Part shown: one piece after another, positions 1 through 51,460 of the stretch | Position numbering within the stretch: the first letter of the stretch is position 1 | Layout of the letters: the number at the start of each line of letters is the position of its first letter | Assembly (NCBI GenBank): GCA_964658305.1 | Contig: OZ210885.1 | Span: 16,182,001 to 16,246,000 of the forward strand | DNA: 64,000 nt | Source: Leptogorgia sarmentosa | Taxonomy: Eukaryota | Direction: 5' to 3' | Made by a program: the position numbers and the translations under genes | The notes under the pieces: generated by a model | The model's input: the letters and a program-made list of their open reading frames with translations, nothing else | Databases searched by the model: none | What the model was told of the DNA's origin: nothing

Positions 1-1156
1 CCTTTGGTTCACTGGTGGTCTCCATTGCTTCGCTGAGACTGGGAAAATCTGCTTGGTACTGGAGGCAGTTGTTGGCTTCATGGCCCTTTTCCCCACAGTT
101 ATAACACCGTCGGTCGGGGCAGTCCCCTTTGGTGTGACCAGGTTTGCCACATCCTCGGCATACCCGGCCGGCTTGGCACTCTTTGGCCTCGTGGCCCGGT
201 TGATGGCAGTTTCGGCAGGTGCTAACTTGCCCTCTATATGCTGTACGCACCCTGTACTTTCCCACCAAGATGTACGAGGGGATGTTACCGTTGAGTCGTT
301 TGTACTGGGCAATTTTGATGCCCGTTTTGATTTGCAACGGTCCGTCGACGTCATCTGTGATCGATACAAGTTCTCCATGTAGGGCCATTTTCAGTCTCAG
401 TGTTTCGACCGGTGCATCTAGAGGATACCCGAAAAGTCTAACCCATGTATAGTTTACACGATTGATATTTGTGCTGGTCAGGATGAACTCTTTCCCGTGT
501 AACTGGAGTTTGGTATTGGTCGCTTCTCTTTGTCTCGTTGTGTGTGGAACACCATGTACCATAGCGCCTTGCTAAAACATTTGATGCCTTCTATTTTCTT
601 CATGCCCGTGCCAGAGTCCCGTAGACTATTATAAATCTCTGTTCAAAGGACAGCTGGTCCATCCACGGTAGCCTCAGCTGGGATTCCTTCCAGAGAAAGC
701 AGCAGAGAGCGCAGTCTCTGGATATTGGATCGTGCGCGTGCGCACCACTTGTTAAATAATGTGTCCCACAATAATACGATGCACAAAATGGCGTCCTCGC
801 TCGCTTAACGAAAATACAATTTAAAACACTGCACAGCTTGCCCGTTGATGATCCTTTCTGTTGCAAAAGGATATCATTCGAGAGCTACGCTCACGCCGGT
901 TCTGCTGATCTAATATTCTTCCTGAGACTCCCTTTCAAACGCGAGAAATTCGCCGCAGACGAGGCGACATGTAAACGATACTTCGTATCCCGTTTCGTTC
1001 GGAAATCGTTACAAACACTGGCTATTGGTGCTGGAAAGTTAGCTCATTGGACGCAGAACTTCCTTACGATGATTTTGATGTGTAAATGTCGAACCAGTAT
1101 TCAGGCCAAAAATCCAGATTTCGATGGAGCGCTACATAAGTGTGCCACGAGCGTGC
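1..1156 (-). mobile_element. 5' part of a Tx1/L1-type non-LTR retrotransposon (degenerate gag-like ORF1 with three CCHC knuckles), inserted after U2 nt 50; runs off the window edge
   Basis: Manual minus-strand translation of ~720-60 gives ...YTWVRLFGYPLDAPVETL...IPSYILVGKYRVRTAYRGQVSTCRNCHQPGHEAKECQAGRVCRGCGKPGHTKGDCPDRRCYNCG..., a Tx1/ZCCHC3-like ORF1 with a stop and frameshifts. The element starts GCACGC directly after U2 ATCTGTTCTTATC. Confidence 0.8.
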
Positions 1157-1169
1157 GATAAGAACAGAT
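1157..1169 (-). ncRNA. U2: U2 snRNA gene A, fragment 3 (nt 38-50)
   Basis: Reverse complement ATCTGTTCTTATC matches U2 nt 38-50 exactly. It is collinear with the fragments at 6512-6528 and 13639-13662 and follows the AATAAA-containing 3' end of the Utopia-like element. Confidence 0.8.
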
Positions 1170-2199
1170 CTTACAAATTTATTCAAAAAATAAATTTTTA
1201 CATTGGAATAATGAGATAGTGTCTAGATTGAGTTACTATTTACATAGAGGTTATATATACAAAAAGAAGAAATTAAGGAAAACCTTAAAAACTTAAGGAA
1301 ATTTAGACAACAAGGTGGAAGCCTAATAATGTTTGTGCCTGGTAGGTTTAAGACTATAAATCATTGAAATAAAATATATGGAATGCTACCTGTGCAGGAA
1401 CATGCCTGAAGCCATAATTAAATTCGTGGGTTACTCGCGCGCTAACACGTTTTTTGCGTGGTCCAAAGAGGCAGCTGCAATGTGTTGTTTTAGCTTTTCG
1501 AAGTTAAGGGGTTGAATTTTCATTCAAAAAAAGTACAAATCACATCTTTTCATTTCTTTTCATACGTCTATCCGATTGGTAAATCAGGGAAATAAAAGCA
1601 GACATTTTTGTTTAACTCAAATATGTACACAAACAATATGGATCAGAGATTTTCAAGACTGACATAACCAAATGAAGTTGTAAAATTGAATCACATCGTG
1701 GTCTTTTTTCTGGAAGCAAAATTTCGTGCTAAGATATAATCAAGTGAAGGTTTGCAGCACAAACGACTGTACTTGTCAGCTTGCAAAGGCTTTTTATTGA
1801 TCTTTTGAACATGATTCTCCCGGTTATTATTGTGTATGAATATAGGTCAAAAGTACATACAAAAATAAACTGAGTATGATTTTTATTTTTCGCACACAGC
1901 CCTGAAAAACAACGTTTTATCGTTATTGAGTGTTTTCCAGCTTCATCTAGCTTTCAAAAACAAGAAATTATTACCTTAGTGTAAATTCCGAAAGAAACTA
2001 GGCATACTATTCGTGAATTTCGTTAAAATCTTATAATAATATATACAATATCTTGAAGGTTTATAGCTAGGTAAGTACTGAGAGTGTACTACTATACTGA
2101 ACTATGGTAAAAGTCAAAACGACAAAGATAAAAAGTTTTTAATTACTATGGTACTGTTTGAGCACATGCACCTAGTGTGCATGGAATTATTTGCTGATG

Positions 2200-3378
2200 T
2201 GCTTATAGTAATTGTCAGCTGAGTGCTTAATAACGTCACTGCAGCAAAGTTTTCTAAATAGTTTACGATATGATAGAAACATGCGGAGATTGTTTAAAAC
2301 AGCTTCGTTATTGGGATCCAACCACCAAGAGCACCGACGACAAAGCCAAAGACACGACAAACTTTACCATGTTGATGGAAATGATGGATGAGATGCCTGT
2401 ACTTTTCCACCTTGCGATTTTCGGCATTGGTGAGAGCATCATGGCTATTTTCAAAGGGGCAAACGACATCGATTGACGGTGACTTCATTGTTTTCTTCAA
2501 ATTGAAGCGGACCGATTGTTTTAGCTCCGATTTGGCGATGGTTGAAACTAGTGGATCGGTGGAAGAAAGCATTTTAATTGCCTGAACGCCGGTTTGTACA
2601 TCTACTTCGATCAAGGGATCTTGAAGGTCAAGACCGCCGACTTTGGTGCTAGCGAAGATGATGGATTGCGTAGCTCTTGATGGAAGGTTACAAACATTGT
2701 GAACGACTTCGATTAGTTTCTTACGGTATTTGATTAAAGAGTTTTTTTCCGGTTCACCAGCACAGAGGGCAAACGTTAAAGATGGTTGAATGAAAGTTCG
2801 AATGCTGTCTAACTTCTGCCAGGGCGTCAATAAGGATTCGTTTATTTGTTCCAAGTCAGCGCAAAGGTCATCAACTAGGTGGTCCAGAGAGTCGACATCT
2901 TTCATCATCATGCCAATAGGGACTCCGAGGTAGCGGTAGTGTTCATGTTGTTTTAGTGTTGACATTGGATTGCCTTGGATTTTGAATTGAGATAGTTGGA
3001 TGTTATTTTGAACACGTTTGGAGTATGTGGCACACAGGGAGGCACACTTGTCAGGTCTGAATTCAAGTCCAATCAAGGTAGCCATATCACCAGCAGCATC
3101 GAGAAGTTGTTGGAGACATTTCTCATTTCTGGCAATCAGTACAAGGTCGTCTGCGTATACTAATACGGATATGGGGAGACCATGATGTTTAGCTGGATTG
3201 GAGGTGTTGGACTTAGCCAGGACAGCTCTGAGGATGATTTCAACGCTGAGGTTGAACAGAATGGGAGATAAGGGACATCCTTGTTTAACACCAGATAGAA
3301 TTGGGATGTTAGGAGTATCACCGGCAGGGGTACGAATAATAGTGGTGGCTCCAGTATATACATTTGATATTAAGTCTT
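2200..3378 (-). pseudogene. RT plus restriction-like endonuclease remnant of a Utopia-like element
   Basis: ORF 2294-3085 and the upstream frame carry RT motifs clearly homologous to 20957-22396. A deletion joins the post-RT region directly to the RLE 'IDVVCPFEN' segment. Confidence 0.85.
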
Positions 3379-3799
3379 ATTAGGTTAACTTGCGGATTTA
3401 TACCAAGTTTGGATGAATAGTTTAGGAAAAATTAAGCCAAGACGCGATGTGTCCAAATGTAAACAAATATTCGTATATTCACGCTATAAATCCGTATATA
3501 TGAAATAACGTTGATAAAATACGAACCACAGTACAAAACAGGATAATAATACACCAAAATACTCCAAATAACGATGTAGATATGATTGCGTCGACGAATT
3601 TGGGAAATTGGATAAGGATAGCGATAAAAATCCGAATAATATATAACCACGAACGTAATTAATATTCAAATAAATTCAAATGAAAAACCATGGTCAAAAG
3701 GTCAAAATCCAGATAACTTGGGAACTAAGTAACTTGAATGTACGAAACTTTGACACGAGGATACAGGTCAGAATCACAGATCACACACGAATTTTCACC

Positions 3800-4320
3800 A
3801 GCATAATATGTTCTTGTAGGTCCAGTGAGTGACGATCCTGGTTCGTGATATCGCAGCTTTCGTCCTGATGTGTGTTCTAATTCGCTGTACCGTTCGCCGA
3901 TAGATGTCACCTTCGTTAGTTAGAGTCCACGACGGCTGTGTTCCTGGTCGACCATAATACGTACGCGGTGTTGGCAATGACATAGTGTGTCAGGTATTTC
4001 TGTGGGTCCAGGTTTGGTATGTTCTGCTTGAAAACAATAGTTGCCAGGTTCACTAGAACCTGTTGTCCAGACAGTCGGTCAATTAACGGTTGCATTTTGT
4101 GCCATAGGCCCTGCGCTCGTGGACAGAGGATCAAGGTGTGGTCCCAGGTTTCTCGCTCGTCACAGTAAGGACACTTCGGAGAAATCGCCATGCCCCATCC
4201 TGCCAGGTAAGGTTTCGTAGGTAGAACTCGGTGTGCCAGCTGCCACAGAAACTCAGTTTCGACATTCGTTGTAAGGGACGTCCACATGTTCTCCCACGCG
4301 TCGAACAGACCAGGTACCGG
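3800..4320 (-). pseudogene. Fragment of a Tx1/L1-type ORF2 C-terminus (zf-RVT region)
   Basis: FLWQLAHRVLPT...CPYCDERETWDHTLILCP...YVLWSTRN, then frameshifted ...HWTYKNILC. Same domain type as the end of ORF 14893-16173. Confidence 0.8.
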
Positions 4321-5604
4321 GTATACAATTCGGAGTTGTTGTTTGTCAGTGGAGCAGGGTTGGATGGAATATCAGAGGGCAAGGGGTGGTCATTGATGGG
4401 GGTGGAGTCACTATTATGGTAGGTGGTATTGTTGTAATTGGTTGTGGTGTCATCGGTAGACAATGGAGAAACGGAAGGAGGTTTTGACTTTCCAACGTTT
4501 ACATCATCATCGTCATAGTCCAGATCTAAATCAACCATTTCAACTTGGTGTATATTGTGGCTAGTCGGTGGAAAGGACACAGCTGATGGATTCAAAGTTG
4601 AATGTATGGGTAGTGACATTTTAGGTGAGGTTGGATAAGGTGGGCTTGGGGGAAGTGGGGTAGTTGATGGGACTATTGGTACTGGGGGATTAGCTATGGT
4701 ATGGGAGTGGTTTGGTGTAAGGTCGGCATCCTTGGAACAGTTACTGTTGTCGGTGGTATCGAGCAAAGAAAGGGTCATAGGAATAGGTATGATAGTGCTA
4801 TCCACATTAGTGCAATCATTTAAGACGACCGAGGTTTCAAGCGTGTTATAGTATGACTTTGAGCTGTCCGTGGTACAATCAACGAGGGCAATGGATGGTT
4901 GCATGAGATTTCTGTGCAGGCATCTGGGAATGAACTGGTGTTTGACATTGGGGTGTGAGGGTGGATTGGTAACGTTTGGGACTTCGGGGGTATGAGGGTT
5001 GGGTTGATGGTATTTGGTGGGGGGTGGGGAACTGTTTGGCGTAGTTGGGGAATTAATGGAATTGGTGGGACATGTGGGAGTTGAGGTAAAAACCTGACAG
5101 GATAAACGTGGAGTTTGGGGTTTGGTAAGGATTGTTGTTTTACAGTTCTGTTTAGGTGGGAAGGGGTATGGGTTGTTGTCATCTTCTTGGGGATTAATGA
5201 ACGATGTGACAGGGGTAGGAGAGAGGGTATATGAAGTATCTTTAACCAATTTTGTGTGTTCGTTGTAGATGGATGCCAGCGCCGCTACAATTTGAAAAGG
5301 ATCGGTTGCATATTGAACATTTCGCTGAGATATTGAGTGTTATTTCTTTGTGTAAGTTTTGGAAATGACGTTTGAAATAAGCGAAGGACGCGATTACGGA
5401 ATTACATAGACAACAACTATATGATTTGCCATCAGGAAAAAGTCTAACGACGTTAACAGACTTTACGTTATCAGGTACGGTAACACGATGCATTTTTGCT
5501 TTATGGATACCAAGATGACCTTGTGACGATGCAATAAAACTACAGTTCAGACACTGGAGGAATGAAGATTGAGACATAATGGACATAGACCAACGAACGT
5601 ACAA
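4320..5604 (-). pseudogene. N-terminal C2H2 zinc fingers and Pro-rich linker of a Utopia-like ORF (frameshifted near 5245)
   Basis: CLNC...H...H, CCLC...HFQNLH and CSIC...HLQRTH are three C2H2 fingers, typical of the N-terminus of RLE-type elements. A low-complexity P/T/N-rich segment follows. Confidence 0.7.
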
Positions 5605-6511
5605 TAATTAAAATCCAAATAGTTTGAAGTAATTAGTATAGGACGGGAATTCCCCTAAAAATACTGATTGGCCATGTAGGAATGAATATTGATGAGCCAC
5701 AGGAATATAACGCCGACAGTTATGGAATTATAAATGTTGGAGTAAATCCGATCGTATTAACGGTGTGATAACCAAACTTCGTCAGGAAAATAAAGTGTAT
5801 ATAAACGATAATGTAGCAGAGTTCCAGTGACGAATGACAAATAGTTCACGAGATATTGGACCAACACGGAATGACTTTAGACATAAACAAATGATTATAG
5901 TTTCACGCTATAAATCCATATAATATTGGAAAACAGGAAAATCGCACGAACCACGGATCGAGAGAAGACAATAAATATATCAAAATGATCCAAATGACGA
6001 TACGAATACAGTTCCGTCAACGAAATTGGAGAAATATATGTGAATGGCGAGAAAAATCCGGGTAAACGCAATAAAGCATAACGTTTCCAACATAATTAAT
6101 ATTCAAATAAATTCAAAAATAAAACCAACGGTGAAAAGGTCAAAATCCAGATATCTTGAAAAAAAAGTATCTTGAGTATATAGAACTATGACACGGAGAT
6201 ACAGGACGGAATCGCAGTTCACATACGAGTTTTCACCTAGAAAGGACAATCCGCAATGAAGATACGAGACAAAATCCAAAACGAACACAATTATAGCGTA
6301 CGGCACGATAAGTGGACCAGTACAAGATGATAAAAACTCCAATATAGACACGCGACGATGACCAATTGGTATGACAGGTGGATAGGAATGTTCCAGACGA
6401 TCTTACGAATATTTTGATACCAAAAGTAGCATTCAGAAGCACAGATTAGATGTTGGAAATGGCCAGATTTAACAGAGCTTTCTCCAACGTAATCCGGCGT
6501 GCGTGCGTGCG

Positions 6512-6528
6512 TACTACACTTGATCTTA
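6512..6528 (-). ncRNA. U2: U2 snRNA gene A, fragment 2 (nt 22-38, includes branch-point recognition GTAGTA)
   Basis: Reverse complement TAAGATCAAGTGTAGTA matches U2 nt 22-38 exactly. Confidence 0.9.
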
Positions 6529-6681
6529 TTTTGATTTATTAAACGTTTTAGCTATATACAGAACGGAGTGCAATGTTCATAAACTAAAGTTCGGTGAAGA
6601 TCATACACATCGATAAGCGAGCGATTGATTGGCCACTGGCCCACACAACTAAAATATTAAAAGTCAAGCGCATTGTGCCCA

Positions 6682-7251
6682 TCAGCCCTCGAACTCGATC
6701 TTATTACCGGCGAGGATGGATTCTATAATTGTTTTCTTCGTGTCTTTGTCAAGTTTGTTTGAGCATTCCGGATGTGTGGAAGCGTAGAAGACGGAAAATG
6801 CGTATCGAGTGTCCTCAGGTAGGTTTTTTAGGTCGCGTACTGCATCTTCAGTTAAGTCGGGCAGGTCTGTATACTGTTTCTGGGCGTTGAGATAGGTTTG
6901 GATCATGTCGTATCTGCTGAACGGAATAGGAGAAGGCGTTGTGCCAGTTGGTAGAACCGGCTGCCAAACGTCGGAATAAGTCAAGTCGACCAACGAGCTC
7001 GACCACTGATCAGGGCTGATTTGTTTTAACAGGTTAGGAGGGAGCGGAGGCAAGGCTGGCGATGTTGGATGCCGAATCTGGAGCGTGTCGCGGTATGTTT
7101 GCCTGAGCGCTGGAGGGAGCCGGGAACATAAGGCGGTGATTTTGGCGAAGTCAGGATCAGTGGCTTTTGAACCAAGAACGTGGGCTCGTAAGTACTGACG
7201 TTCATACTGAGCATAGGTCGGGATCTCAGGCTTGTCCTTCTTCGAAGTGAC
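6682..7251 (-). pseudogene. C-terminal half of the ORF1-like protein of copy 1
   Basis: Open frame VTSKKDKPEIPTYAQYERQYLRAHVLGS...FSRYDMIQTYL...FYASTHPE aligns with 22768-23544 (KKDKPDVPTYDQYEREFLRANILGS...FYASTHPE). Confidence 0.85.
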
Positions 7252-7563
7252 GACATGTGTAAGCGATATTCGAGAATTCTTACTAATAGTCGAGAAATGT
7301 ATCCATTATTCGAGAACTTAGCTGCTGTATGCGATAGTCGAGAAAATGTAAACGATAGTTGAGATTTTCGTCTGCATTTTTGGTCAGCGGCAGTACATGG
7401 TCGGAAACCATCGGAATATACCGTTTGTTGTCATGTATGGAATATGATATTATGACATGTTTATATTTCCATGTGCTTATTTCCATGTGCTTCAGTGCTT
7501 GTCAGTGGTGCTTTCGGTCGCAATAAAATTGTCAAAAAACTGATTTAAATTAAATATTTATAT
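7252..7563 (+). repeat. Left terminal inverted repeat
   Basis: GACATGTGTAAGCGATATTCGAGAA...CTGATTTAAA is the reverse complement of 12256-12563, with few mismatches. Confidence 0.95.
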
Positions 7564-7592
7564 ATTATTTATGTCATGTGGAGTTGAGCATC

Positions 7593-9077
7593 ATGGCGGA
7601 TGATGTGAATGATGTGGAGGAGTTGCAGAATTTTCTTTGTGCTATTGATAGTTTGTTTAATCAGTGCCGGAGATCTCAATGCAATCGGGATTCGATAGGA
7701 TCGGAACATTGCAAAATCAAAATGGAAGACAACATTCTTATCGTAGTTGCTATAAAGGCAGCTGTAGATGAAAATGCAGCTGCAGATTCATCGTTAGGAG
7801 TTTTGCTCAATAATTTGATCGCTGCAATGGAGAGAGAACTCGAAAAACTAGCCGAGATTGTAGAGAATTGTCCTACCGAGGAAACAAGAAATGTTATTTC
7901 GCTTTTGCCCAGCACGGGAGGAAGACCTGCATATAATATCTCCAAGGTACAAATCGAACAGTTGAGGGAAACAGGATTAAAGTGGTGTAGTATTGCAGAA
8001 CTTTTGGGTGTGTCCGAGCGAACGCTACAAAGACGACGAATAGAATTTGGAATTGAACCAAATTTCTCAGAAATTTCAGATCATGAACTGGACAATCATA
8101 TCAGAGAAATTCTCCAATTGACACCATACAGTGGTGAGTCATACGTTAGAGGTGGCTTGAAGGGAAGACAAGTAAATGTCCAAAGACGCAGAGTTAGAGC
8201 CAGTATTCAAAGAGTCGATCCAATTGGTAGGAGCATACGAAAGAGGTATGCAATTTGTCACCGTGTCTACAATGTTCGTGGACCAAACCATTTGTGGCAT
8301 ATTGACTCGAATCATAAATTGATATCATGGAGATTTGTGATTCACGGTTGCATCGATGGCTTTAGTAGAGCAGTTATTTACCTAAAGGGTTGCACAAACA
8401 ATAGAGCTGACACTGTTCTCGGTTTGTTTGAAAATGGTGTGAGGGAGTTTGGTTTACCTTCTAGAGTGCGAGGTGACCATGGTGTTGAGAATGTTGATGT
8501 CGCAAGGTACATGGTCTACAATAGAGGCACAGATAGAGGCAGTTTTATTGCTGGTAGAAGTGTCCACAATCAGCGTATTGAGCGGTTGTGGGCAGAGGTG
8601 AACAGAGTTATGACAGCACTATATAAGGATTTGTTCCAGTTTCTAGAAAGAACTGAACAGCTTGATTCCTTTAACGAGGTACATCTATTCGCCCTTCAGT
8701 ATGTTTTCTTGCCTCGCATTAATGTATCTTTAGCTGAATTCCAGAGGCACTGGAATCATCATGGAATGAGAACAACAAATCACCAGTCACCATTAGCATT
8801 ATGGCACACTAACATGATAATGGCGGCTCCTGACGATTCAAGTGTTATTAACTGGGAATCCTATGGAACTGACTACAGCACTTCAGCACAACCAATTCAA
8901 ACAAACAACAATATTGTGATCCCAAATTCAGATATTGAACTCACTGAAGCACAGCTTCATTACCTGCAACAAATGGTAGACCCTTCACAAAATGATGGAA
9001 ATAATGGTATACAGCACTTTTTGAATACAGTGGACATTGTTGCTGGTTTCATGGGTGATGAAACAGTAGACATTTGA
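7593..9077 (+). CDS. DDE integrase/transposase (rve-like core, N-terminal HTH)
   Basis: Intact single-exon [32 protein letters not shown]. Catalytic motifs: [40 protein letters not shown]. Confidence 0.9.
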
Positions 9078-9489
9078 CTGACTTGTATTATTAAAAAGTA
9101 TAGCTGGCCAAAGATCTGGGTAATAGATTTGGTAGTCAATGTTCATACCCAAAATAACAGGGAAAAAACGCATTAAATGTAAATTGTAAACTATTTTGTC
9201 AAAACAATGTAATAACACAACAAAAAATCTATATAGTTATCCGCTAAACAATGTGAAACTGTGGTAATGTTTGTCTTGGTTCTTGGCAGTATTAACATTT
9301 ATATGTACTGTTGCATTAAAAATTGTTACATTACACAAAAATGCCAATAAATGTTTAGCCATCATGATGGTAAAATCTCATAAAAATCCTTGATAAAATC
9401 CCTGTAAAAAACAAGGGGTGTATAATCCACTGATCTGTGCAACTTAAACCATACCAAATCTGAACAAGTTATCAACTAGTAAGTACATT

Positions 9490-12248
9490 TCAAACAATGT
9501 CAAATGACCATGACTGATACCCCCTAATAATATTTAGGAATTCTTCCGAAAGAGCCAAATACGATTCGTACGTTGAAGGTAGCTCTATCAAAGGTGCACA
9601 TGTGCGGGCTATGGGCCGCCTTTCTAAACCAGTCATGGTATTGAAAGTAATGGAGATTGATTCACATGTGATGATGTCACTTCCTGTGCAAAAATGCAAG
9701 AACTTTCCCAATGTATGGCCTTCCAGGGATTTGACAAATCGCTTCAGATGGGCAAGACTTTCTCTTTCAGCATCATTGGAAGGTTCTGCTTGAAATAGCT
9801 TGATAATTTTTTTCGAAGAAGCAACTTTGCTTTTGTAGAACTCTTTGAGACCATCAAAGGTCCGGAATTCTGGATGACCTTGTAACAAATGCAATATAGG
9901 CGCCCAACAGTTGACAATGTATCTCGGTTTCTGTATCAGCTCTTGGTGCGCTAACTCATGGACAATTTCTTGTATGTTTTCTTGTGATGGTAGTTTGAAA
10001 CACTTCAAAGAAGACAGAAACTCGATGACATCTGTAGCATCTTTATCAAAGGTATCACCAAGACACTGATCTAGAACATCTTGATCTTCACATGGGGTGT
10101 ACTCTTTAAACGATGAAAGTAGAAATTCCAACGTGATGCATTCTTCCCCAAACAAGCATGATGCAATAAAAAGACAAGAAAGTTGGAGTGGGAAATAGCC
10201 ATACTTTTGGTACCCATAGACAAGGATCCGTGCAATAGCTTGCTACTCACGTTTCTGCATATCATGCCTAATGAATGGTGTTTTCTCCTTTCTTCCTACG
10301 GTTAATGATATGTAACAATTGTTCTAAAAATGGGTCAAAATATCTAATACAACACCTCTCCCCTTGCCTTTCTCCGGTTCACCACGTGCATCAATCACAA
10401 CCACATCAAGGTAACAGTTTAAAATACTTGGATCAGTAAATATTTCAGTTAGATCTTTACGAATGGTGGATCGATGGACAGTGACTGTTTTGGGAAGCAT
10501 TGGAGTGTACATTGATATTAATTCCAGATCATCTACAAAATCAAACAAAGTAAATAAATTAGTTCATTTGGTAGAACTGAATTAGAATGTAATATTTTTA
10601 GTAATTCACCAAACTTCTAAATGACAAGTAAATCATCGTCAATTGCCCATACAAATTAATAAGTTGTTTGTAGACATCAACAGATCCCAGGCCATTTTCC
10701 ACTTATTGCAGAAATGACATTGCAAGCAAGTGTTTTTATCCAATCATATTGCTCAAAATTTGTTTTAATTAGATGTGAACACTCACAGCAGACTAGCCAT
10801 TTGGTTTTGGATGAGTGAGCATATTTAAGGATATTCAAAACTTCAAGGATACTGAAATCATACCTTCATCCATGTCAGACAAAACCTGAGCCGTTTCCTG
10901 ATGTGGGCTATCAATCTGAGCAGGTTGGGTGTTACCATTGGCACTAGGGTCGTTGGAGTAGAAATTTGCTGAAAGGGGTTGAATGGTGGCTTCCACTGGC
11001 ATAGGATTGTTGATATTTGTCACAAGGGGTTGTGTATCAACATTAGCTGGAGGGTGGTCGGAGTTGACATCTGTTGAACAGGGGTTGGTGGTTGAATTCA
11101 TTGGATTAAGTCGGATGTTGACGTTAGCATGTGAGTGTTGGGAGTTGGTAGGGGTCTGGACGGTAACACTGGAAGCAGTGTTAACATTGCTTTGGTCAGT
11201 TTGGTGATCCAGGAAACACTCCTCTATTTCTTCTTCTTCTTGTACCAGGTTGGAGGGGGGATTTGATAACTCATTGGTTTGCTAAGGATAATAAATGTAT
11301 ATACACAATACCTCAATTAAAAATTCACCACAAATATTAAAACAGGATAAATGCTCAATATCTTACTTGGGCAAAATTAAATGATAGTTTTAGAAATAAT
11401 TGTAATATATTTTCTAGGGAAAATTGCATGAATGCAAGGTTGTCAATGGCAATATTCTGGCAGTATTCAGGAAGTAAATGTTTTTTTCTCAGAATATTAG
11501 TGATACTATAATAATCACAGTGCTTCTCTCTACAACATTTATTTATATAAAATACCTGTGACACAATTTCATATGATGCAAGTTCAAAGAGTTGTTGATT
11601 TGGGCGAATATAAACGGGCTTGTTTCTATAAAGTCGTTGTAGCAAGGCACCATCTATACCATGTTGGCCAGGTGCCAATGTTGGGACCACCAAACTTGAA
11701 TGAACAGAAATTAGTAACTCAATATCCACACCGGGTGGAATTTTACCGTCAAAAGCCTCGATTATCGTTCTTTCGACTTCTATCATCGACTGACCTCTTG
11801 TAAATGTGCACCCTGAAATAACGTGCCCCCTTTCATTTAGAGCAAGACGTGTTCCTTGCCGGGGTACGACTTGAGTGTCAGGACCGTTCAGTAAAACCAA
11901 ATCTTGCATAAAAGGCTTGTTATCGCTAGCGTTTGCCTTTTGTTTTCCCTCCTTGCGAGCCGAGCGCAAACGTCGTTGGCCTGAAAAATTTTGTCTAACT
12001 GAATAAGGTCTATATCTATTATTTGTCGGTTCATTTGACGATCTTGAGGTGAAGGGTGTTGAAGTAGATGGTCCACCTGAGTTTGTGCTTCTGTCTCTAC
12101 TTGTAAAAGTACGTCTCACTTCTGACTCGATGTTGTCTTGGTTCGGTCGCCCTGATATCGCATCAGACAGTTCGCCTATCCTTGAAAACAGCTGCCTTAT
12201 GACATCATTTGATTCGAGATTTTGCTGTTCATGATTCCTGTCTACCAT
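9490..12248 (-). pseudogene. Spliced HECT-domain E3 ubiquitin ligase (G2E3-like) passenger gene with two nonsense codons
   Basis: Predicted exons ~12248-11556, ~11281-10864 and ~10532-9490 with GT/AG boundaries. HECT-like motifs: EPEKGKGRGVV, ARILVYGY..YGYFP, FLHFCTGSD, RRPIARTC..LIELP..Y. In-frame TAG codons at ~10324 and ~10245 sit where Trp is expected. Confidence 0.8.
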
Positions 12249-12255
12249 ATTTCCA

Positions 12256-12563
12256 TATATAAATATTTAAATCAGTTTTTTGACAATTTTATTGCGACCG
12301 AAAGCACCACTGACAAGCACTGAAGCACATGGAAATAAGCACATGGAAATATAAACATGTCATAATATCATATTCCACACACGACAACAAACGGTATATT
12401 CCGATGGTTTCCGACCATGTACTGCTGCTGACCAAAAATACAGACGAAAATCTCAACTATCGTTTACATTTTCTCGACTATCGCATACAGCAGCTAAGTT
12501 CTCGAATAATGGATACATTTCTCGACTATTAGTAACAATTCTCGAATATCGCTTACACATGTC
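12256..12563 (-). repeat. Right terminal inverted repeat
   Basis: Reverse complement of 7252-7563. Confidence 0.95.
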
Positions 12564-12631
12564 TCAGCTATAGTATATATTTCTCATACATTGTATGCAG
12601 TTCTCGACTATTGCTTACAGTTCTCAATATA

Positions 12632-13495
12632 CTTTTGTCCAGTTTGGCTTGCCATAGGCGACGCCTCAACAGTGCCGGACAACTGCCGTTTGCTCGTATC
12701 TGGATTCACCGGAGTCGATGTAGAGGAGCTGCCCTCAGACACAGTGTCTTCATGTGTCTCAGACACTTCCATAGTTTGCGCGGGGGGAACCAGGGAGCCA
12801 GGAGGGCCGTCATCCGCGGAAGCGGTATCGTTCTCATCCGCAGCAGGAACAGAACCAACAGGATTAGTAGTCGCAGCCCCGGTAGGCGTCGACGGACGTA
12901 CAATGGTATCTCCTACAATTTGTGCAGGGGGAACACCACGGGATTTCTTGAACGGAGAGTCTTTAGATTGGTGACCGGTCTGTTCGCATCGGAAGCACTG
13001 CTGGACTTGTCCTCTGTAGAACACATTGACGGGGTAGTTGGCGATGGTCAGACGGGAAGGTATTGGCTTGCGAAGTTCCATCTTAACAGAATAAACCGAG
13101 ATTCCAATACCTTGAACAAGTTCGTGTCGGATTTTTTGCACGTTGCCGTAGTCTGAAAGCCGCGACTTTATCGCGTTTTCGGTCGTGCCATACATGACCC
13201 GGGTGAGTTTAACCCATTGCGTGTTGGGAGCGGCGACGAGTTTGACCAGCTGTCCACGGAACGTCAGCCCGGTGTGGAGCAGGGCTTCAGCCTGGCGACC
13301 ATCTCGGCAGTGCATGACAAAAGTCGATGCACCGCTTTGCATGATGTTGTCAATTTTCGTGGAGGCATCTGGAACTTGGCGGATGGAATCATCAATGATT
13401 TCTTTCAAAGTGACAGGGATAGTTGCAGCAGCTGCCATAACTTCATCAGGTAGCGTGCCCACCAGGGCTCTTGCAGCGAAAGGGACAGCAGCCAT
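12632..13495 (-). pseudogene. N-terminal half of the ORF1-like protein of copy 1 (RRM-like region plus degenerate CCHC knuckle)
   Basis: MAAVPFAARAL...QWVKLTRVMYG...IPSRLTIANYPVNVFYRGQVQQCFRCEQTGHQSKDS is Tx1/ZCCHC3-like. It is truncated by the DNA transposon. Confidence 0.85.
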
Positions 13496-13638
13496 TGGAT
13501 CAGGAACCAAGGACCACCAAACGTGAACAGCACCACGCCAATCCCCAACACCAAAGACTTCGTAAAAATCTCTTCTTCTTGAAATCTCTTCTTAAATTCT
13601 CCAAATAGCGGGACTCTTCTCACTTGATTAGAATATCG

Positions 13639-13662
13639 TTAGCCAAAAGGCCGAGAAGCGAT
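13639..13662 (-). ncRNA. U2: U2 snRNA gene A, fragment 1 (nt 1-24)
   Basis: Reverse complement ATCGCTTCTCGGCCTTTTGGCTAA matches the U2 5' end exactly. Confidence 0.95.
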
Positions 13663-13920
13663 GCCTTCTTCGCCGTTCCATGCCATCTTTAAGCGAGAAA
13701 AGCAGGTCCTCCTTCGCGCCGCCATTAGCAGCCGCGGCCGCGAAATCGCAAGCGAAACGAGCCGCAAACGTTGTGGCACGCGGTGATGATGACTCGTACA
13801 ATCAATCGTTTGTGCGCTGCTAATTAATTCGGGTGCACGCGCGAAACTTCTCGCGATGCACGCGCGAAACTTCTCGCGATGCACACGTGTTCTCCACGAA
13901 TTTCTGGCGATTTTTTGGCG
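13663..13920 (-). promoter_or_regulatory. U2 upstream promoter region, copy A
   Basis: Highly similar to 24301-24560. It has GCTTAA near -30 and lacks ~15 bp (including TTCACCT) that is present near -55 in the other copy. Confidence 0.7.
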
Positions 13921-14123
13921 GGTGCACGTGGCACTTTCTCCCATTCGCTGGCTCCGTGACCGATTCGGGAATGGCAAATGAGCGACATGCATTGAGTTGA
14001 ACGAAGCGTGTCCGGTTGCACTTCGGTTGGAGAAATGACGTGTGCATTTGAATTGGAAATGGTTGTTTAACATAAGTCTAGTATAAAATGCATGATCGGT
14101 TGGCAGCGCGTGTATGGATTGAT

Positions 14124-14539: not shown

Positions 14540-14892
14540 TTATGTTGGATATAGGCAAATCCACCCCCACTTGGGAGCGTGCAATGGATTTCCCTAAATC
14601 GAGGAGGGTGCTACCGGCACGCAAACGACTAAGGGGACGATCCCTACCTCCTCATTAAATGCACCCCGAGAATATTTATTATTCTGACGCCTCGAGTAGT
14701 GCATTTAATTCTATATAAAAAACAACACATACTAGGACAGTACATGGACCGATGCTAGCCTGATACAGGCAGCAACGGGGATTTAAAAAGAGAAACGACC
14801 CTACCGAACCGATCGGGGCAGTACAACTAACTAAGGCGACCCCCCTTCACGGAGCGGCAGAGGAAGAAAAAAGGATCAAAAAACCTGAAAGA

Positions 14893-17800
14893 CTAAAAGG
14901 AGAAGACCAGCTCCTCCCCCTCGAAATGACCTACAATACCGCGAGCGAGCCAATCCCTCTCAAAAGATCGCACTTGAGCAGGGAGTTTGCACCGACGACC
15001 AAAGAGACGAAGAACAAACTTTACTTTGGCGATGGCTTTCGCCTGGCAATCCGAGGCGATTGGCCGCTTACCACAGAAACGGAAATCACAACGAGCCACG
15101 CAGATGGTATGTTTCATCACATGGAGCATGCACACGATGATTGGGGGCACGATGCGCCGTCGTTCGGACGAGAAGCCGAACAAGAGTTCCGTGACGGTAA
15201 ATGGTGCGGCAGTAGGACATATCTGCCATAAATTGTAGTGTACCCATGCCACCAAAAGGCGGGCCAGCTCACATTCGAAGAATAGATGTTCTAGAGTTTC
15301 TTCATCTGCTCGACAGAAACAGCGCATATCGATGTTCGGCATGTTAAAGCGGGTTCCCAAGCGAGAGCCTGTGTAGAGAATGCCATGCGCTATTTGCCAG
15401 TTCAGGTCGATCACAAGCCGGTCAAATGGACATAGATGAAGCTGACTCCAAGTTTGGGGCCAGTGTAGAGGTCCATACTGCAGCGTGAACTTGGCTATAC
15501 AATGTGGCTGGCTATTTAAATTGTTTTGACTTATTTGGTACACATTTTTACTTGATATGTTATCCACCAGGTGTGGAGAGGCAGACGAGGCAGCAATGCA
15601 CAAGTCATTGCCAGTAAGACCACCGTCGAGAGATTGCCACACCCGAAAGATGATACAATAGAACTCGGGCAAGGCTCTCAAACGACGTTGGGAAAAAGAA
15701 GTTAAAAAGGCCTCACGAGGCTCGCAACCAAGTGAGGCAGAAACAAAATGGGTAAAAAAGTCTTTCCATTTGCCACGATCTTCAGCGAACAAACGTTTTA
15801 CCCATTGAAGTGCAAAAGCATCTGCCTTGAGTTGGAAATCGATAACTCCAAATCCACCCTTGGATTTGGGAAGGCAGACTACTTTGCGGGCAACAAGATC
15901 CCGCTTGCCAGACCAGAAGAACTTCCAAACTGCCTTGTGTATTCTCTGAACCGCCCACTTCGGAACAGGGAAGACGTGACAAATGCCATATCTGGGACAA
16001 GGCCAAAGTGTTGATAATAGTGGCCTTGCCCTGAAAGGACAGTCTGCGTCCAGACCAGTCTGACAAACGTTTCTCCAAGTTGGAAACGGCTGGCTCGAAG
16101 GTCGGCTGACTATAGTCAGCGGCACTGAAGGTTGCACCAAGTAATGGGAGTTCTTTAACCCACTGGATACCATGAGGGGTATCGGTACGGTGCTTCCAGG
16201 AGCCCAACCACATGCTCTTAGATTTGCCGCGATTCAGACGAGCACCCGAGGCTTTCTCAAACTGAGAATACACCTCGAAGGTGGCCTTGATCGATTCATC
16301 CGTAGTAGGCGCAATCGTCGTATCGTCGGCATACCCAGAGCATTTAAACTGTTCCAGCGATTGAGGGAGAAAAACCCCAGTAATACCTGGGGCAGAGCGG
16401 ATGTTAGCTGCTAACACCTCAATCGACACAACGTACAATAGTGGAGAAAGTGGACAACCCTGCCGCACACCCGCAAAGCAGGAGGTCCAGCCATTGATGA
16501 CTACGGCCGATTCTACGTCAGAGTAAAACAACTTTACCCATCGGCAGAAATCCGGACCAAAATTCATGCTGTCCAGAGTCCGTAAGAGAAAACCCCATCG
16601 ACCCGATCAAATGCTTTTTCTTGATCCAAAAAGAGCAGAGCGAGGGGAATGTCCTCGTGCTCCGCATACTCAATTAGATCACGGATCAGAAAGAGATTCT
16701 CTGAGATGGTACGGCCTGGAACACCGCACGTTTGATCTGGCCCCACAACAGAGCCGATGACGGCTAGGAGACGACCCGAAATAGCGCGAGTAGCTATTTT
16801 GTAGTCTGCATTGAGCAGACTAATCGGCCGCCAGTTCTTTGTCTCCAAGCAGTCATTCTTTTTATAGAGGACAATGATCAAACCTCAACGCTGAGAGGTG
16901 GAAAGCTGGCCGGCCTCGTAAGCAACATTGAGGACACGAACCAGATCAGCCAAAACTTGAGGAAAAACTCCATGGGAAAGCCATCGGAACCCGGAGTCTT
17001 TCCCCTAGCCATACCCGACAGGGCAGTAAAACATTCCTCTAAAGAGAGAAGACCCTCACAACACGCATGTTCCTCCTTACTAAGGCGGCGAGACAGCTTT
17101 GACAGCATCTCATCCTGAGCAGATGTATCGCAGGGTGATGCAGTAAAGAGTTCGGTGTAATACCGCCACCAGACGTCCAAGATCTCAAAAGGGTCGTGGC
17201 GCACGGTACCGGTGTCGGGGTCTCGAATGGAGTGCATCTCTTGCTTTGCATGTCGCTTAGTGGCTAAATTGAGAAAAAAGGAGGAGGAAGTTTCCCCCTC
17301 CTCAGCCCACTGACAACGAGCACGAACTTGTGCCCCTCTCGCTTCATGCAAAGCAATGCCTCGGAGCTCTTCCTGAACCTCGCAAAGCTTAGCGAATGCA
17401 GAGGTATCCCCGGCTTCGAAAAGACGCTGCAGTCTGTGCATCTGCTTGGTCAGGAAGGATTTATGTTCCCGCCGGTCCAGCTCCTTTGACCGACTAAAAG
17501 TGCGTGTCACTTCTCTAAGGTAGAATTTCCCCTGGTCCCACCAATCCAAAATGGAGGGAAAGGCCTCAGGTGTATAATGGCCTGCCAGAAGGACCAAAAA
17601 GAAGTGACAAGGGCGCAATAGGTTTCGTCGTCCAGGAGGGAAGTATTAAACTTCCACACTCCAGGACCACTAACGATACGATCACCAAATTGGAACTTGA
17701 CCAGCAAGTATTGATGATCTGATAAAAAGGAGGGATGATATTCACATTCCCTAATATACTGTTCCAGACAAGTCGGGGCCCAGACCATATCGATGCGTGA

Positions 17801-18409
17801 GCCAAAGGTTCCGGACCCATGGGTCCAGGAATAAGCCGTCTGCGTGGGATGTAACGTACGCCACACCGGATATGTCTGGGTATGAGATAGTAGGGTCTGC
17901 AAGGCCCGGCCACTTTCTTGGGCGCGCGAAGAGGCAGCACCAGTGTAAGAAGCACGCCGAAGCCTATCCCGATCATCGTCTAGAACAGAATTAAAATCAC
18001 CACAAACAAATGTGGGCCTGGTAAGATCAATTAAACCAGGAATTGAAGCGAAAAAAGCGTTACGAGCCGGATTCTTATTTGGGGCATATAATGAGACGAA
18101 ACTTAGCTGATCTTCCCCAAAATCAACGAAGACTTGGACAAATCGTCCATCATCATCTGGAATCACTTGTTTAACCTTGTGACAGTCTTTAATAAGAATG
18201 GCCGTGCCACAACGCTTATTTGACACTGACGACGAGACAACTCGAAAGCCAGAATTAGCGAACCACTTTCTGATGGATTCGTGTGAAGGAGCATGCGTTT
18301 CTTGCAAACATGCAACATCCACCTTCATACATTTTAACCAATCCACCAGGGCGGTTCGTTTAATACGGTCGTTAAGACCATTAATATTGATGGACAACAG
18401 ACTCGCCAT
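14893..18409 (-). pseudogene. Tx1-type ORF2 (AP endonuclease, RT, zinc-binding C-terminus), several frameshifts
   Basis: APE motifs: SININGLN, ACLQETH, YAPN, CGDFN, SRID, SDH. RT motifs: GVWKFN, KNWRPISLLNADYK, LDQEKAFDRVD, GVRQGCPLSP, YADD. C-terminus: CFCRADEETLEHLFFEC. Confidence 0.95.
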
Positions 18410-19580: not shown

Positions 19581-19606
19581 AAGAATACGAATTAACAAAA
19601 AAATCA

Positions 19607-19612: not shown

Positions 19613-19876
19613 GTAAATCTCATGAACAGCGATGCTGCTTAAGCTTTGTTGGCCAACGAGCAGCTACCCAAGACTATTATAACATGAATGTGTTAGGCTG
19701 CTTACCATAATTCGTTTGTCGTCGGTCATCCGCACTGAATATGTCATTGTATACGTATCTCTTGCCAAATGCCGGTTCGCGGCGAGGATCTATCTGTAAA
19801 GTCAAGAATAATTTGTAAGAATTTTTTTGAACTGATAGTGAGTGAGAAATCTTCCCCCAATAATGAAATTGGGGGA

Positions 19877-20026
19877 AGTGGGCCATACTCGGAGGTAGTG
19901 CAATACCGAGACAACCCGTGGCCAGGGCGAAGCAAGCTTCAATCCCATGGCCGAGGTCCAAAATCAGTTTAATATATGAGTTAGGACATTGCCTAACATA
20001 TCAGATATTAAGCTGATAAAAACAGA
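19877..20026 (-). ncRNA. U2: U2 snRNA gene B, 3' body (nt 39 to end)
   Basis: Reverse complement reads TCTGTTTTTATCAGCTTAATATCTGATA...GATTTTGG (Sm site)...GCTTGCT...CTCGGTATTGCACTACCTCCGAG (SL IV). Confidence 0.92.
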
Positions 20027-22601
20027 AATTTTTTATTATGGATAAAGAAATGTTACAAGCTATGTTATATATATACGGGTTAATGACTTAGAAGTTAATG
20101 ACAATAGAATGTTATATACAAAGGTTTGAAATGACTGATTGAAACGTTCAGTAGGAAAGAAGTTGTTTGGAAACTACTACTATGGTAATATTATTATAAG
20201 TTACTATAATAATCTAAGAAGTTCTAGTGAATTAGATCTTTTTAAAAGACGTTTGATAAAGTTATTGTGGGACACCTGTAAGGTGTTGGACATAAATGTT
20301 TGTAGAGATGCGAATGGCATCTGCGCAACATAGTTTCCTAAATAGGGTTCTATATCTTAAATTAATGTCAAGTTCGTTAAGGACAGCTTCATTCTCGTTG
20401 TACCACGCACCAAGGGATCCAACGACGAAACCGAACACTTTGGCATCTTGGATGTGTTGCTGGAAGTAGTCGATCAGGTAGTCGTACTTGTTGGTTTTCC
20501 TTTGGGCAGCCATTTCCAGTGATGTATCATTGTTCTCGTAGGGGCATGTGATGTCAATGATGGTTACTTTGTTTCCTCTACGAACAACGATATCTGGACG
20601 GTTAATACCGGGAGCTCCAGGCACTATTTGATCAACTGTGACGTCGCCAGTATTGATTGCATTTAGAAGGCGATTTAGTATTCGGTCGTGTCTAGCTGTG
20701 ATGGCCGTCATGTTTGGTTTGCAGTGGCATATGATGTGGGGTAGCGTTTCGGTGTTATTTTGGCTGTGACATCGTCGACAAACTGGACTGGTATCCGACC
20801 AACGGCTTTTAACATCATTAGTTCGTAGGGTATTGGTCCTTGCGCGATGGATAAACCTCCAATCACAGAATCGAAGGCCCGTTCCGTCAAACGCCCAGTT
20901 GTTGGTGGTGGCAATTCAACATGACTGCAGGCATCTGGCGACTTTACCTTGATCTTTTAGGGATAGCAAGTCATTTGCGTGTTTGGTTTTGAGATGGCTT
21001 TGAGATGGCGGTGAAGGAATGAGGATATTTTGTGGGGTGAATCTGTGGTTGAACCATTGATTGAAACGGATATGTTCGTTGTAGCGTTATGGATGGCGAT
21101 GTTTAATGCTCTGCTGGAAATTCGGCATCTTGACCAAAGGGAGGCACTTGAGTTTTGGTGATTGGCAAGGGGGCCCTCTTGGAAACCTGAGAGGAAACCA
21201 TCTATTACTTCGCTGGTTGGGTTGTCTTTGCATTTAACACAACGTTTGACAACTGATGTAAGTTGGTCACGGGAGATACTCTTAATGAGTGGATCGTTGG
21301 CTAAGAGGATCTTGACGGTATGGACCACAGTTTGAATGTGTCTCTCATCAAAGGGATCCTGGAACCCAAGACCTCCAACCGATTTGTCAGCGAACAGGTA
21401 TGCATTTGAAACCCTCTTTGGTAGGTGACAGATAGATTTAATTGTCTCTATGAGCTTTGACCAATAATCTTTAAGAGAATCACGTGGCACAGGACATGAT
21501 CTGAGTGCGTAGGTTAAACCTGGTTGGATAAAAGTTCTGATAGCATCAAGTTTCTGCCATGGAGTTAGAAGGGAGTCACGGATTTTGGAAAGGTCTTCAA
21601 CTACTTTTTCGGTAATTGATTTCATGTCTGTAGCATCATAGATTAGACCAATGGGTACACCAAGGTAACGGTAGGATTCTTCTCTCTTAAGGCATGGGAT
21701 TTCCCCGTTTTCGACAATGAAGTGGAATTCAGAAACTCTATCAGGGTGTTTGTTGGAGCATGTTAGGCTGAGGGTAGCGCATTTATCTGGTCTGAATGAA
21801 AGGTTAAGGGTGTCAGCGGCAGAGGAAACACTATTCAGAAATTCTTGAAGGCCATTCTGTGTTCGGCTAATTAACACGAGGTCATCAGCGTAAGCCAGGA
21901 TAGATATTAGCTGGTTGTGTAGTTTAAAAGCCATCTTGGGGTTGTTTTCGGCTTTTGAAATCACTGTTCTAATTAATAGTTCGGTTGTAAGATTGAACAG
22001 GATTGGGCTGATAGGGCAACCTTGTTTAACGCCAGCGTTGGTATTGATGGGTGATGTTTCGTCTTCTCGCGATGTGCGTATAACAGTTGAGGCATTAGTG
22101 TATATGTCCTTAATTAAGTCTGTGAAGGTTGATGGGAAGCCCATATGGGATAGAGATGTATAAATGGCTTCGTGGTTTATGCTACCGAAGGCGTTTCGTA
22201 AGTCCAACCATGCAATGTAACAATCCTTATAGTTTCTTTTACAGTCCGAGATAATTGATTGACGGGTAAACGTATGTTCGTGGCATCCTTCAGCGGGTCT
22301 AGCACTCTTTTGTTGGGTGGAGAAAGTAGGTTGTGGTGGATGGCAAAGGTTGTAGCTCTCGATGCAAGGATAGCTGTGAAAAGTTTGTACAAACATGACA
22401 TTAAAGCAATAGGTCGAAAGTTGCTTGGATCATCACTGTTTCCCTTTTTGTATATGAGGATGGTCGTGGAGGTTTTCCAGACAGAAGGGATTTGTTTGTT
22501 ATTTAGACAACGATTGAAGATGAGTGATAAGACTTTACAGCTTGGATCAACTTGTCGGAGGTGGCGATATTCAACTCGGTCTTTGCCAGGTGCAGAATTA
22601 G
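20027..22601 (-). mobile_element. 5'-truncated Utopia-like RLE retrotransposon at U2 nt 37/38
   Basis: RT motifs: AWLDLRNAFGS, GVKQGCPISP, LAYADDL, YRYLG. CCHC: RRCHS...ETLPHIICHC. RLE: RHDRIL...RPDIVV...IDITCPYE...KTNKY. The 3' end is AATAAAAAA, and the element is bounded by U2 nt 22-37 and nt 39 onward. Confidence 0.92.
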
Positions 22602-22617
22602 ACTACACTTGATCTTA
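22602..22617 (-). ncRNA. U2: U2 snRNA gene B, middle fragment (nt 22-37)
   Basis: Reverse complement TAAGATCAAGTGTAGT. Confidence 0.9.
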
Positions 22618-24276
22618 ATTTGTTTAATAATCGTTTTAGCTATTTACATAAGGCGAAAGTGCAATGCCCGCAAGCCAAAGTCCAAAAGATCATATACACT
22701 GGACTAGACCAGCTAGCTGTTCGTTAATGGCTTAAAAGCCCACACATATAAAAGAAAGCGTCCAGCGCTAATTGTCCTCGTAGCTAATGGGACACATGTT
22801 CAGGATGGCCTCATAGAGACCCTCCTTTATGTCCGAGTTTACACTGCCCATGCTCTCGGGGTGCGTGGATGCATAAAAAATGTCATAGGCTATCCGCGCA
22901 TCAGATGGTATGCCATCAAGTTCTTTCTGGGCATCAGCAGGAAGGTCGGGAAGGTTTGCAAATTTGTCTTTGGCATCAACATACGTCCGGATGCGATCAT
23001 ATTGGGCAAAGGATATACCAGGGGGGGAGGTACCAGGAGGAACCACAGGATCGAGCAGCGTGGAGGTGGATAGATCCATACAGTCAGTCGGCCACTGGAG
23101 GGAGTGGAGACTGTTCAACATGTCCGAACTTGGAGTCGGAAGAGCCTTCCAAACAGGGTGACGATACAGAAGGGTTTTCTTGTATTTCGCGTGTAACTCG
23201 GGCGGAATCCGGCGTGACACCGAGGACACCCGTTCACGATCAGCAGCTGTTACATTGGACCCGAGGATATTCGCTCGCAAAAACTCACGTTCATACTGGT
23301 CATACGTGGGCACATCGGGCTTGTCTTTCTTCGCAGGAAGAGCAGGACCAGATGTGGATCGCTGACGCTTTCCAGTATCTGGATTAAGCATGGTAGACGT
23401 GGAGGAGGTATCATCTTCAGGGAGTTGCTCGGAATTGTTCCCACTGGGAAGCACAGGAGAGGCGGAGGTATCTGAGGCAGCTCCAGGCGGAGTAGGGGGT
23501 GTCAAGGGAGGGGGGTCATCGACCACCATAGCAGGACCGGCCACGGTCTCACCAATGATACGGGCTGCAGGAACTTTACTGGTCTTCTTGAACGGGCAAT
23601 CTTTCGAGATATGCCCCGTCTGTTCGCAACGAAAGCACTGTTGTACTTGGCCGCGATAAAAAACATTAACTGGATAATGCGCGATGGTAATACGAGACGG
23701 GATGGGCTTTCATACTTCCATTTTCACAGAGTAAACAGAAATTCCAATCCCGTTGACGAGTTCTCTGCGAATTTTCAAAATGTTGCCATACTCGGATAAC
23801 CGCGATTTAATTGCATTTTCGGTGGTCCCATAGACCACCCTCGTTAGTTTGATCCACTGGGTATTTGGAGCAGCGACCAACTTGACCGGATGCCCACGGA
23901 AGGTCAGCCCGGCATGAAGTAGCCCTTCAGCCTGACGACTGTCATGACAGTGCAGAACAAAGGTTGTAGCCCCAGACTGCATAACATTATCGATGTGTGT
24001 CGATGCTTCAGGAAGTTGACGACAGAAGTCTTCTATCATCTCTTTCAACGTGACAGGAGCGGTAGCTGCGTTCTCCATAACAGCAGCTGGAATCGTGCCC
24101 ACCAGGGCTCTAGCGGCGAAAGGGACTGCAGCCATTGATACCAGCGAACCAACGACCACCGACAGCAAACCAACAGGACGCCAATCCTCAGCCAAACTTC
24201 TCCAAAACTTCTTCTTTTTCTTCTTCTTCTTCTTCTCTTCAAGATACTTCGTTAATCAACAGGACTCTTCTCTCTT
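22618..24276 (-). mobile_element. ORF1-only (HAL1-like) Tx1-type retroelement, copy 2 (~1.66 kb), at U2 nt 22-24
   Basis: Flanked by U2 nt 1-24 and nt 22-37 (TAA duplicated). The 5' end GAGAAGAGTCC is shared with copy 1. It has a GAA-rich leader, a single ORF and a ~150-bp 3' UTR. Confidence 0.9.
22768..24135 (-). pseudogene. ~455-aa ORF1-like protein (RRM-like region, CCHC knuckle, disordered linker, conserved C-terminal domain), one in-frame stop
   Basis: ORFs 23710-24195 and 22768-23544 are in the same frame, separated by TGA at 23710-23712 where copy 1 has Arg. Knuckle: CFRCEQTGHISKDC. Confidence 0.88.
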
Positions 24277-24300
24277 TTAGCCAAAAGGCCGAGAAGCGAT
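24277..24300 (-). ncRNA. U2: U2 snRNA gene B, 5' fragment (nt 1-24)
   Basis: Reverse complement ATCGCTTCTCGGCCTTTTGGCTAA. Confidence 0.95.
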
Positions 24301-51455: not shown

Positions 51456-51460
51456 TATAG

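Follow-up and report, generated by a model that had tools for sequence, protein, structure and literature searches.

The window analysed here is a stretch of 64,000 nucleotides (nt) from Leptogorgia sarmentosa (GenBank assembly GCA_964658305.1, contig OZ210885.1, positions 16,182,001 to 16,246,000), whose left 25 kb hold a cluster of U1 and U2 small nuclear RNA (snRNA) genes adjoining arrays of 5S rRNA genes. Two U2 genes of this cluster are broken up by retroelements, and the sites at which these elements entered U2 are the subject of this report. Both genes lie on the minus strand, and their pieces run from high to low coordinates. In the first (gene a), an upstream promoter region (13663..13931, 91% identical to 24301-24560) leads into U2 nt 1-24 (13639..13662), nt 22-38 (6512..6528) and nt 38-50 (1157..1169), each an exact match; the overlap between the first two pieces is a target duplication of 2-3 bp. 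A sequence-only reading of the window had taken these pieces for collinear parts of one U2 gene, which we confirm, as they exceed chance expectation: when the 13.6 kb were simulated 300 times with a first-order Markov model, only 2 simulations gave a match of at least 13 nt to U2 nt 1-60, one covered nt 39-50 and none held a 17 nt match. The second gene (gene b) likewise has exact copies of nt 1-24 (24277..24300) and nt 22-37 (22602..22617) and resumes from nt 39 to its end (about 19873..20026; Rfam RF00004 U2, 104 bits), with a single C>T at nt 45 and without an insertion at nt 50. As that reading had also held, it carries the first two insertions in the same order, an element of the A/B type described below and then a Utopia element.

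In sequencing run X1 and in run X6, the latter bearing another organism label, one contig each spans the nt 38-50 junction of gene a. Since it is bridged in both, the junction is not an assembly artefact. An X1 contig also runs from the U2 nt 22-38 piece on into uninterrupted U2 to about nt 47.

The first interruption is caused by a family that possesses only a first open reading frame (ORF1). The copy in gene a, element A, has a 5' part (12658..13638, minus strand) with an untranslated region (UTR) and the N-terminal half of an ORF1-like frame starting at ATG 13495, in which the family model and a fold search place two RRM-like domains and one zinc knuckle. Its 3' part (6529..7251, minus strand) consists of a helical C-terminal domain, a 3' UTR, AATAAA and a short A-rich tail. 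Element B in gene b (22618..24276, minus strand) is a complete unit of 1659 bp with one ORF containing one internal stop. Both elements begin after U2 nt 24 and end in AATAAA or ATTAAA plus a short A-rich tail on nt 22/23, with target duplications of 2-3 bp, and their 5' junction sequences differ. A and B share 69% identity over 1589 aligned bases, whereas the upstream promoters are 91% identical and U2 nt 1-24 is the same in both genes, a pattern that fits independent insertions. Additionally, a third tail variant adjoins the same U2 piece at a loose end in X1, and the same variant is likely present in X6.

ORF and domain analysis of the complete unit B detected no reverse transcriptase (RT), endonuclease or ORF2. 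Keno, a U2-specific element of the Tx1 clade, is recognized by its ORF2 and by a 3' end on U2 nt 38/39; A and B differ in ending on nt 22/23. What they have is a single ORF1-like gene without RT or endonuclease as their natural form, as in HAL1-like elements. A protein search returned 41 homologues of the family, and an alignment of 24 sequences (A and 23 homologues) displays an N-terminal half, a variable linker and a conserved C-terminal domain, the last of these being kept in most sequences. The family unit is about 1.7 kb. Because 16 of 25 distinct short contigs (<10 kb) bearing the family protein measure 1.5-2.0 kb, which is unit size, we conclude that the family naturally exists in the ORF1-only form and was not truncated to it. 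Furthermore, full ORFs of 440-500 aa are found in many family contigs, and full-length ORFs are conserved across many assemblies.

The modelled protein comprises two RRM-like domains, one zinc knuckle and the helical C-terminal domain of about 170 aa, for which the model is confident (pLDDT 90.6, pTM 0.82). This domain had no Pfam match, no Foldseek match at E 0.001 or better and no usable Atlas match, and its best VIA match among 48,161 chains reached Z 4.5 with a root-mean-square deviation of 5.2 over 66 aligned residues. These model-based fold searches leave the novelty of the fold undemonstrated.

By its sequence, the element at nt 38 is Utopia, at the known Utopia/Keno site. Both copies join U2 from nt 38/39 at their 3' ends. 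Their RTs are 30-47% identical to restriction-like endonuclease (RLE)-type ORFs that end on U2 nt 38 and fall in the same clade, apart from Tx1 RTs (support 1.0); within it the two copies are sisters (support 0.994). This tree was built without any named Repbase Utopia. The copy in gene b (Utopia-b, 20027..22601, minus strand) is truncated at its 5' end and contains RT, a CCHC finger and the RHD and PD..D motifs of the RLE. The CCHC finger and PD..D motifs are thus read in copy b, copy a keeping only the RLE C-terminus, and the three C2H2 motifs are read from ATG 5586 in copy a.

The copy in gene a is a composite on the minus strand. It opens with a leader (5587..6511), followed by the Utopia N-terminus (4331..5586) with three C2H2 zinc fingers and then a P/T-rich linker, the domain order described for Utopia (PMC4640811). 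Next comes a nested C-terminus of a Tx1/L1 ORF2 with its 3' tail (3380..4330, boundaries approximate), which matches Keno-like ORF2s in tblastn with E values down to 4e-13. The remainder is an RT fragment and the RLE C-terminus with one or more internal deletions (2193..3376; RVT_1, 30-38% identical to Utopia ORFs) and a 3' end with AATAAA that adjoins U2 nt 38 (1170..1358). Nested in the 3' UTR is a high-copy insert of 690 bp (1359..2048), which the X1 and X6 contigs skip and whose read depth in X1 is 700-980 as against 100-200 nearby. A Tx1 tail had been considered as the neighbour of U2 nt 38-50 and was rejected, as 1359-2048 is this nested insert and the piece in fact adjoins the Utopia tail. 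Likewise, 9 nt that match U2 nt 53-61 (3374-3366) were not counted as a mimic of the target of the nested Tx1, as they belong to the conserved D-L-I codons of the RT and the junction has no definite position.

Two features of this block are recorded here. A direct repeat of 400 bp (71% identity) occurs at 3416-3799 and 5840-6237, one copy beginning at the stop codon of the nested Tx1 fragment and the other lying in the leader. The nt-38 block (6511, minus strand) and the nt-50 element (1156, minus strand) also open with the same seven letters, CGCACGC, counting C50 of U2, and their leaders do not align.

The left element follows U2 nt 50 and runs off the window (1..1156, minus strand). It is a Keno-like Tx1 element of which the 5' UTR and an ORF1 with an RRM region and three zinc knuckles are present; ORF2 would lie left of position 1. 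The ORF1 is 25-30% like those of Tx1 elements ending on U2 nt 35 or 38. In a tree of 29 sequences covering the N-terminal part, it clusters with the ORF1s of Tx1 elements inserted in U2 (support 0.93, with long branches), and the ORF1 of the nt-22/23 family is a separate lineage. Named close homologues come from the octocoral Paramuricea clavata only, which makes an octocoral host probable, and X1 holds about two copies of the element's 5' part. Among 20 distinct short contigs with a homologue, 11 measure 4.9-5.7 kb. Six of the 29 long contigs (≥30 kb) with a homologue equal in size one of the 37 with the nt-22/23 family, where 0.002 coincidences are expected; on equal contig sizes alone, this ties the left-element family to the same clusters as the nt-22/23 family in other genomes. 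The earlier proposal of three sense-oriented elements stands, with the amendments that its Utopia-like block is a composite and that the Tx1 label of the left element rests on ORF1.

We surveyed U2 junctions in other loci by scanning for U2 nt 51-68 preceded by an A-rich signal, which gave at least 112 loci, classed by the start of the U2 match; all counts from this survey are among the matches listed. In 42 loci with 30 distinct tails the match starts at nt 38, with Utopia and Tx1 ORFs upstream; in 20 loci with 18 tails it starts at nt 35, with Tx1 ORFs wherever an ORF matched. Four loci, found in metagenomes, start at nt 23 and represent two distinct elements: a Tx1 ORF2 tail (L064) and an insert of about 215 bp with a 10 bp duplication (L089, L100, L106). 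The remainder are 24 loci at scattered starts and 22 without U2 context, of which L061 and L091 resemble decayed U2 by eye. In L030 and L061 the match starts at nt 47, without an element ORF. Scans of loci with the ORF1 alignments of either family gave no relative in viral or prokaryotic contigs, and no left-element relative was present among the loci scanned with its ORF1. A U2 pattern matched a single locus in viral contigs, which was left out of the counts.

The survey shows nt 34/35 to be a further common U2 site, one absent from the portions of the Utopia and Keno descriptions consulted. Its class includes L011, L027, L035, L036, L074 and 15 more loci, which end on U2 nt 35/36 and not on 38/39. 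One of them, L036 (L036:1-2108), is a second, unrelated ORF1-only element in U2, with one frame of 548 codons, a 3' junction at nt 35, a 5' junction near nt 96 and about 60 bp duplicated. The insert of about 215 bp at nt 23 has no ORF and is a candidate U2-specific short interspersed element (SINE). Full-length Tx1 elements (L010, L048, L055, L063, L011) join U2 at nt 21-29 with their 5' end and at nt 35 or 38 with their 3' end, which amounts to a recurrent target deletion of 9-16 bp ending near the nt-22/23 site.

The survey also bears on how sites should be numbered. Elements ending on nt 38 have 5' junctions at nt 22-29 (L010, L048, L055, L063), 38-41 (L013, L021, L057, L062), 52 (L002, L058, L072) and 55 (L025, L081). 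With starts spread from nt 22 to nt 55, the 5' junction cannot serve to define a site. The positions 24, 38 and 50 of the sequence-only reading were taken from 5' junctions, while it is the 3' junction that marks the nick, and nt 50 is not established as a third site. Its spacing of about 13 nt between sites is a product of the same numbering; by the 3' junction, the two demonstrated sites are 15 nt apart. Four TpA steps occur in U2 nt 1-50 (22/23, 34/35, 37/38 and 47/48), and the 3' junction classes start right after the first three. APE-type endonucleases nick at TpA, as is known for L1.

Support for nt 22/23 as a site comes from two copies that have diverged and each show their two junctions, from a third subfamily in the reads and from two unrelated elements elsewhere. 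It is apparently a U2 insertion site undescribed before, held by its own ORF1-only family. For the locus as a whole, we favour, with moderate confidence, the explanation that one U2 gene was split by three different sense-oriented retroelements, likely at separate nicks: 22/23, 37/38 and probably a third at or beyond 47/48. Taken by itself, a separate third site behind the left element is slightly the better bet.

Insertion would proceed by bottom-strand nicking and target-primed reverse transcription, as in known non-LTR (long terminal repeat) retrotransposons. Since the ORF1-only family has neither RT nor endonuclease, we propose that it borrows ORF2 from an autonomous Tx1 element nicking at nt 22/23. 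An element of the type needed, with a Tx1 ORF2 tail at nt 22/23, is L064, from another organism. Read-through transcription from the U2 promoter is probable for all three elements. For the left element, the prediction is an A-tail that meets U2 nt 48 with a duplication of 2-3 bp, because 47/48 is the sole unused TpA in nt 1-50 and lies 2-3 nt before the junction.

The earlier idea that a community of elements shares the 5' region of U2 holds to the extent that several unrelated families and more than one site are involved (nt 22/23 and 37/38, with nt 34/35 in the survey). Extended further, the first 50 nt of U2 may be split among at least four retrotransposon nick sites, one per TpA (22/23, 34/35, 37/38 and 47/48), as a 28S-like community in a low-copy gene, with 22/23 held by a long-lived, protein-coding, non-autonomous family with an undescribed helical ORF1 domain. 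We offer this wider picture tentatively, as one that may well fail in some part.

Several observations weigh against a third site and against the roles proposed for these families. The 5' junction of the left element is supported by one locus (the window, an X1 variant and X6), and its 3' end lies outside the window. A retroelement tail on U2 nt 48-51 occurs in none of the 112 loci among the matches listed, which include no locus of the host lineage. The TpA rule was drawn up after the fact, and the A-tails in part force it. The co-location of the two families is read from equal contig sizes only and says nothing on the insertion site. An autonomous partner of the nt-22/23 family was not found in this host by tail comparison in the window and the listed loci: the 3' tail of A and B has no match in the window or among the at least 112 loci, except A to B. 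Finally, the U2 specificity of the database homologues in other genomes is inferred.

Other adverse points would suit a locus with two sites only, in which the left element, a Keno-type Tx1, cuts at nt 37/38 (or 34/35) and duplicates 12-16 bp of target, nt 38-50 being a duplication between tandem insertions. As the 5' junctions of nt-38 elements vary, the nt-49/50 junction could mark where a duplication of 12-13 bp ends. The left-element ORF1 falls among Keno-like ORF1s whose elements nick at 34/35 or 37/38, with the support given above, and nt-38 insertions with duplications to nt 52-55 exist (L058, L002, L072, L025/L081), as does a 10 bp duplication in L089. In the survey, the nt-35 and nt-38 classes account for 62 of the 112 loci among the matches listed, and no locus belongs to a nt-48/51 class. 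Precedents are reported for SINEU-3, with tandem insertions that enclose a duplication (PMC4494074), and for Utopia, with tandem copies and 20 bp duplications (PMC4640811). However, none of the eight Tx1-type loci with both ends among the matches listed duplicates 12-13 bp: five delete target, two duplicate 1-2 bp and one duplicates about 60 bp. The long duplications belong instead to Utopia, to short inserts without an ORF or, in L036, to an ORF1-only element. The absence at nt 48-51 carries little weight because none of the listed loci has the U2 variant of the host or closely matches one of the two ORF1 families; the survey also missed the nt-22/23 family of the window. We regard two sites as a serious but distinctly less probable explanation than three separate nicks.

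It is improbable that the left element is not U2-specific and instead prefers the RNA-gene cluster, or an element in it, with one landing in U2. There is one locus only, a liking for the U1/U2/5S cluster would also lead us to expect contigs shared with the nt-22/23 family, and another Tx1 of the window sits about 130 bp upstream of U1, outside any snRNA. Against this stand the sense orientation, a junction within a 13 nt remnant of U2, the low copy number and the unit-size contigs of 4.9-5.7 kb, which resemble U2-bounded Keno units of 5.4-6.0 kb (L011, L048, L055, L057, L063). Least probable of all, and already disfavoured, is that A and B go back to a single old chance insertion that was copied along with the U2 unit, nt 22/23 being no target site: the equal insertion order in both genes and the unread flanks of homologues would allow it, but the elements are 69% identical against 91% for promoters and 100% for U2 pieces, their 5' junctions differ, a third subfamily is present in the reads, unrelated elements of other organisms use the same 3' junction, and full-length ORFs are conserved across many assemblies.

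Further elements accompany these insertions. Element A is split by a nested DNA transposon of 5.4 kb (7252..12657), which may be IS3EU-like. It carries an integrase-core ORF (rva_4; 7554-9077, plus strand), a HECT ORF (9490-10242, minus strand) and inverted repeats of 314 bp, the left repeat being short of about 90 terminal bases. A frameshifted Tx1/L1 element with APE, RT and zf-RVT domains (14660-19640, minus strand) lies between the U2 3' end and U1 and is the one ending about 130 bp upstream of U1 (14541-14378). At 40400-58000, two tyrosine-recombinase retroelements with RT and phage-integrase domains, presumably DIRS-like, interrupt the 5S rRNA array; their boundary repeats include 5S pieces, and a preference for 5S is possible. 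In the right-hand array, 5S gene variants that exceed the usual 119 bp by about 44 bp occur repeatedly (59457-59619, 61642-61804, 63042-63204 and 63764-63926).

Utopia is a U2-specific, RLE-type element of the NeSL clade, and U2 nt 38/39 is its site; Keno has the same 3' flank, and these two are the only elements reported for U2 in the available text of PMC4640811. The copies described here resemble Utopia in their N-terminal zinc fingers, RT, CCHC finger and RLE, in sense orientation, in a 3' end on U2 nt 38/39 and in having their 5' junction at nt 37-38 and little duplication, if any (PMC4640811). They differ in that both are broken, and the host of the two copies (20027-22601 and 1170-6511) is probably a cnidarian, whereas Table 1 of PMC4640811 gives no cnidarian host. 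Keno, of APE type, is matched by the left element in its Tx1-type ORF1, three knuckles and units of about 5.3-5.7 kb (PMC4640811, PMC4494074). In contrast to Keno, whose 3' flank equals that of Utopia (PMC4640811), the left element has its 5' junction at nt 49/50 and its 3' junction outside the window; the nt-22/23 and nt-34/35 junction classes are absent from what the available text of both papers says of Keno (PMC4640811, PMC4494074).

HAL1, or half-L1, is a non-autonomous mammalian L1 derivative that encodes ORF1p only and has no target preference in the available description (PMC5753468). The A/B family shares its single ORF1-like gene, the lack of RT and endonuclease and the A-rich tail, and differs in its Tx1-type ORF1, its one U2 site and its helical C-terminal domain of about 170 aa. 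We found no U2 sites other than nt 38/39 and no ORF1-only U2 elements in the literature searched; the 2004 description of Keno and Repbase may record such sites.

The use of neighbouring sites in one conserved multicopy RNA gene likens the U2 families to those of 28S rDNA. There, R1, R2, R4 and other unrelated site-specific families occupy neighbouring sites. R2 is cited as targeting 28S in PMC4640811, and dependence on flanking transcription has been discussed for R2 and SINEU (PMC4494074). U2 differs in being a low-copy target for which a single shared site was known in 2015, when the persistence of several families in so few U2 copies was described as not well understood (PMC4640811). Neighbouring sites would let one already-dead U2 copy host several families, which is a testable way round low copy number. 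Furthermore, related Tx1 endonucleases cutting 3-15 nt apart in invariant sequence are material for studying changes of specificity in AP endonucleases. If true, an ORF1-only family that is site-specific and carries an additional folded domain would be a new kind of passenger.

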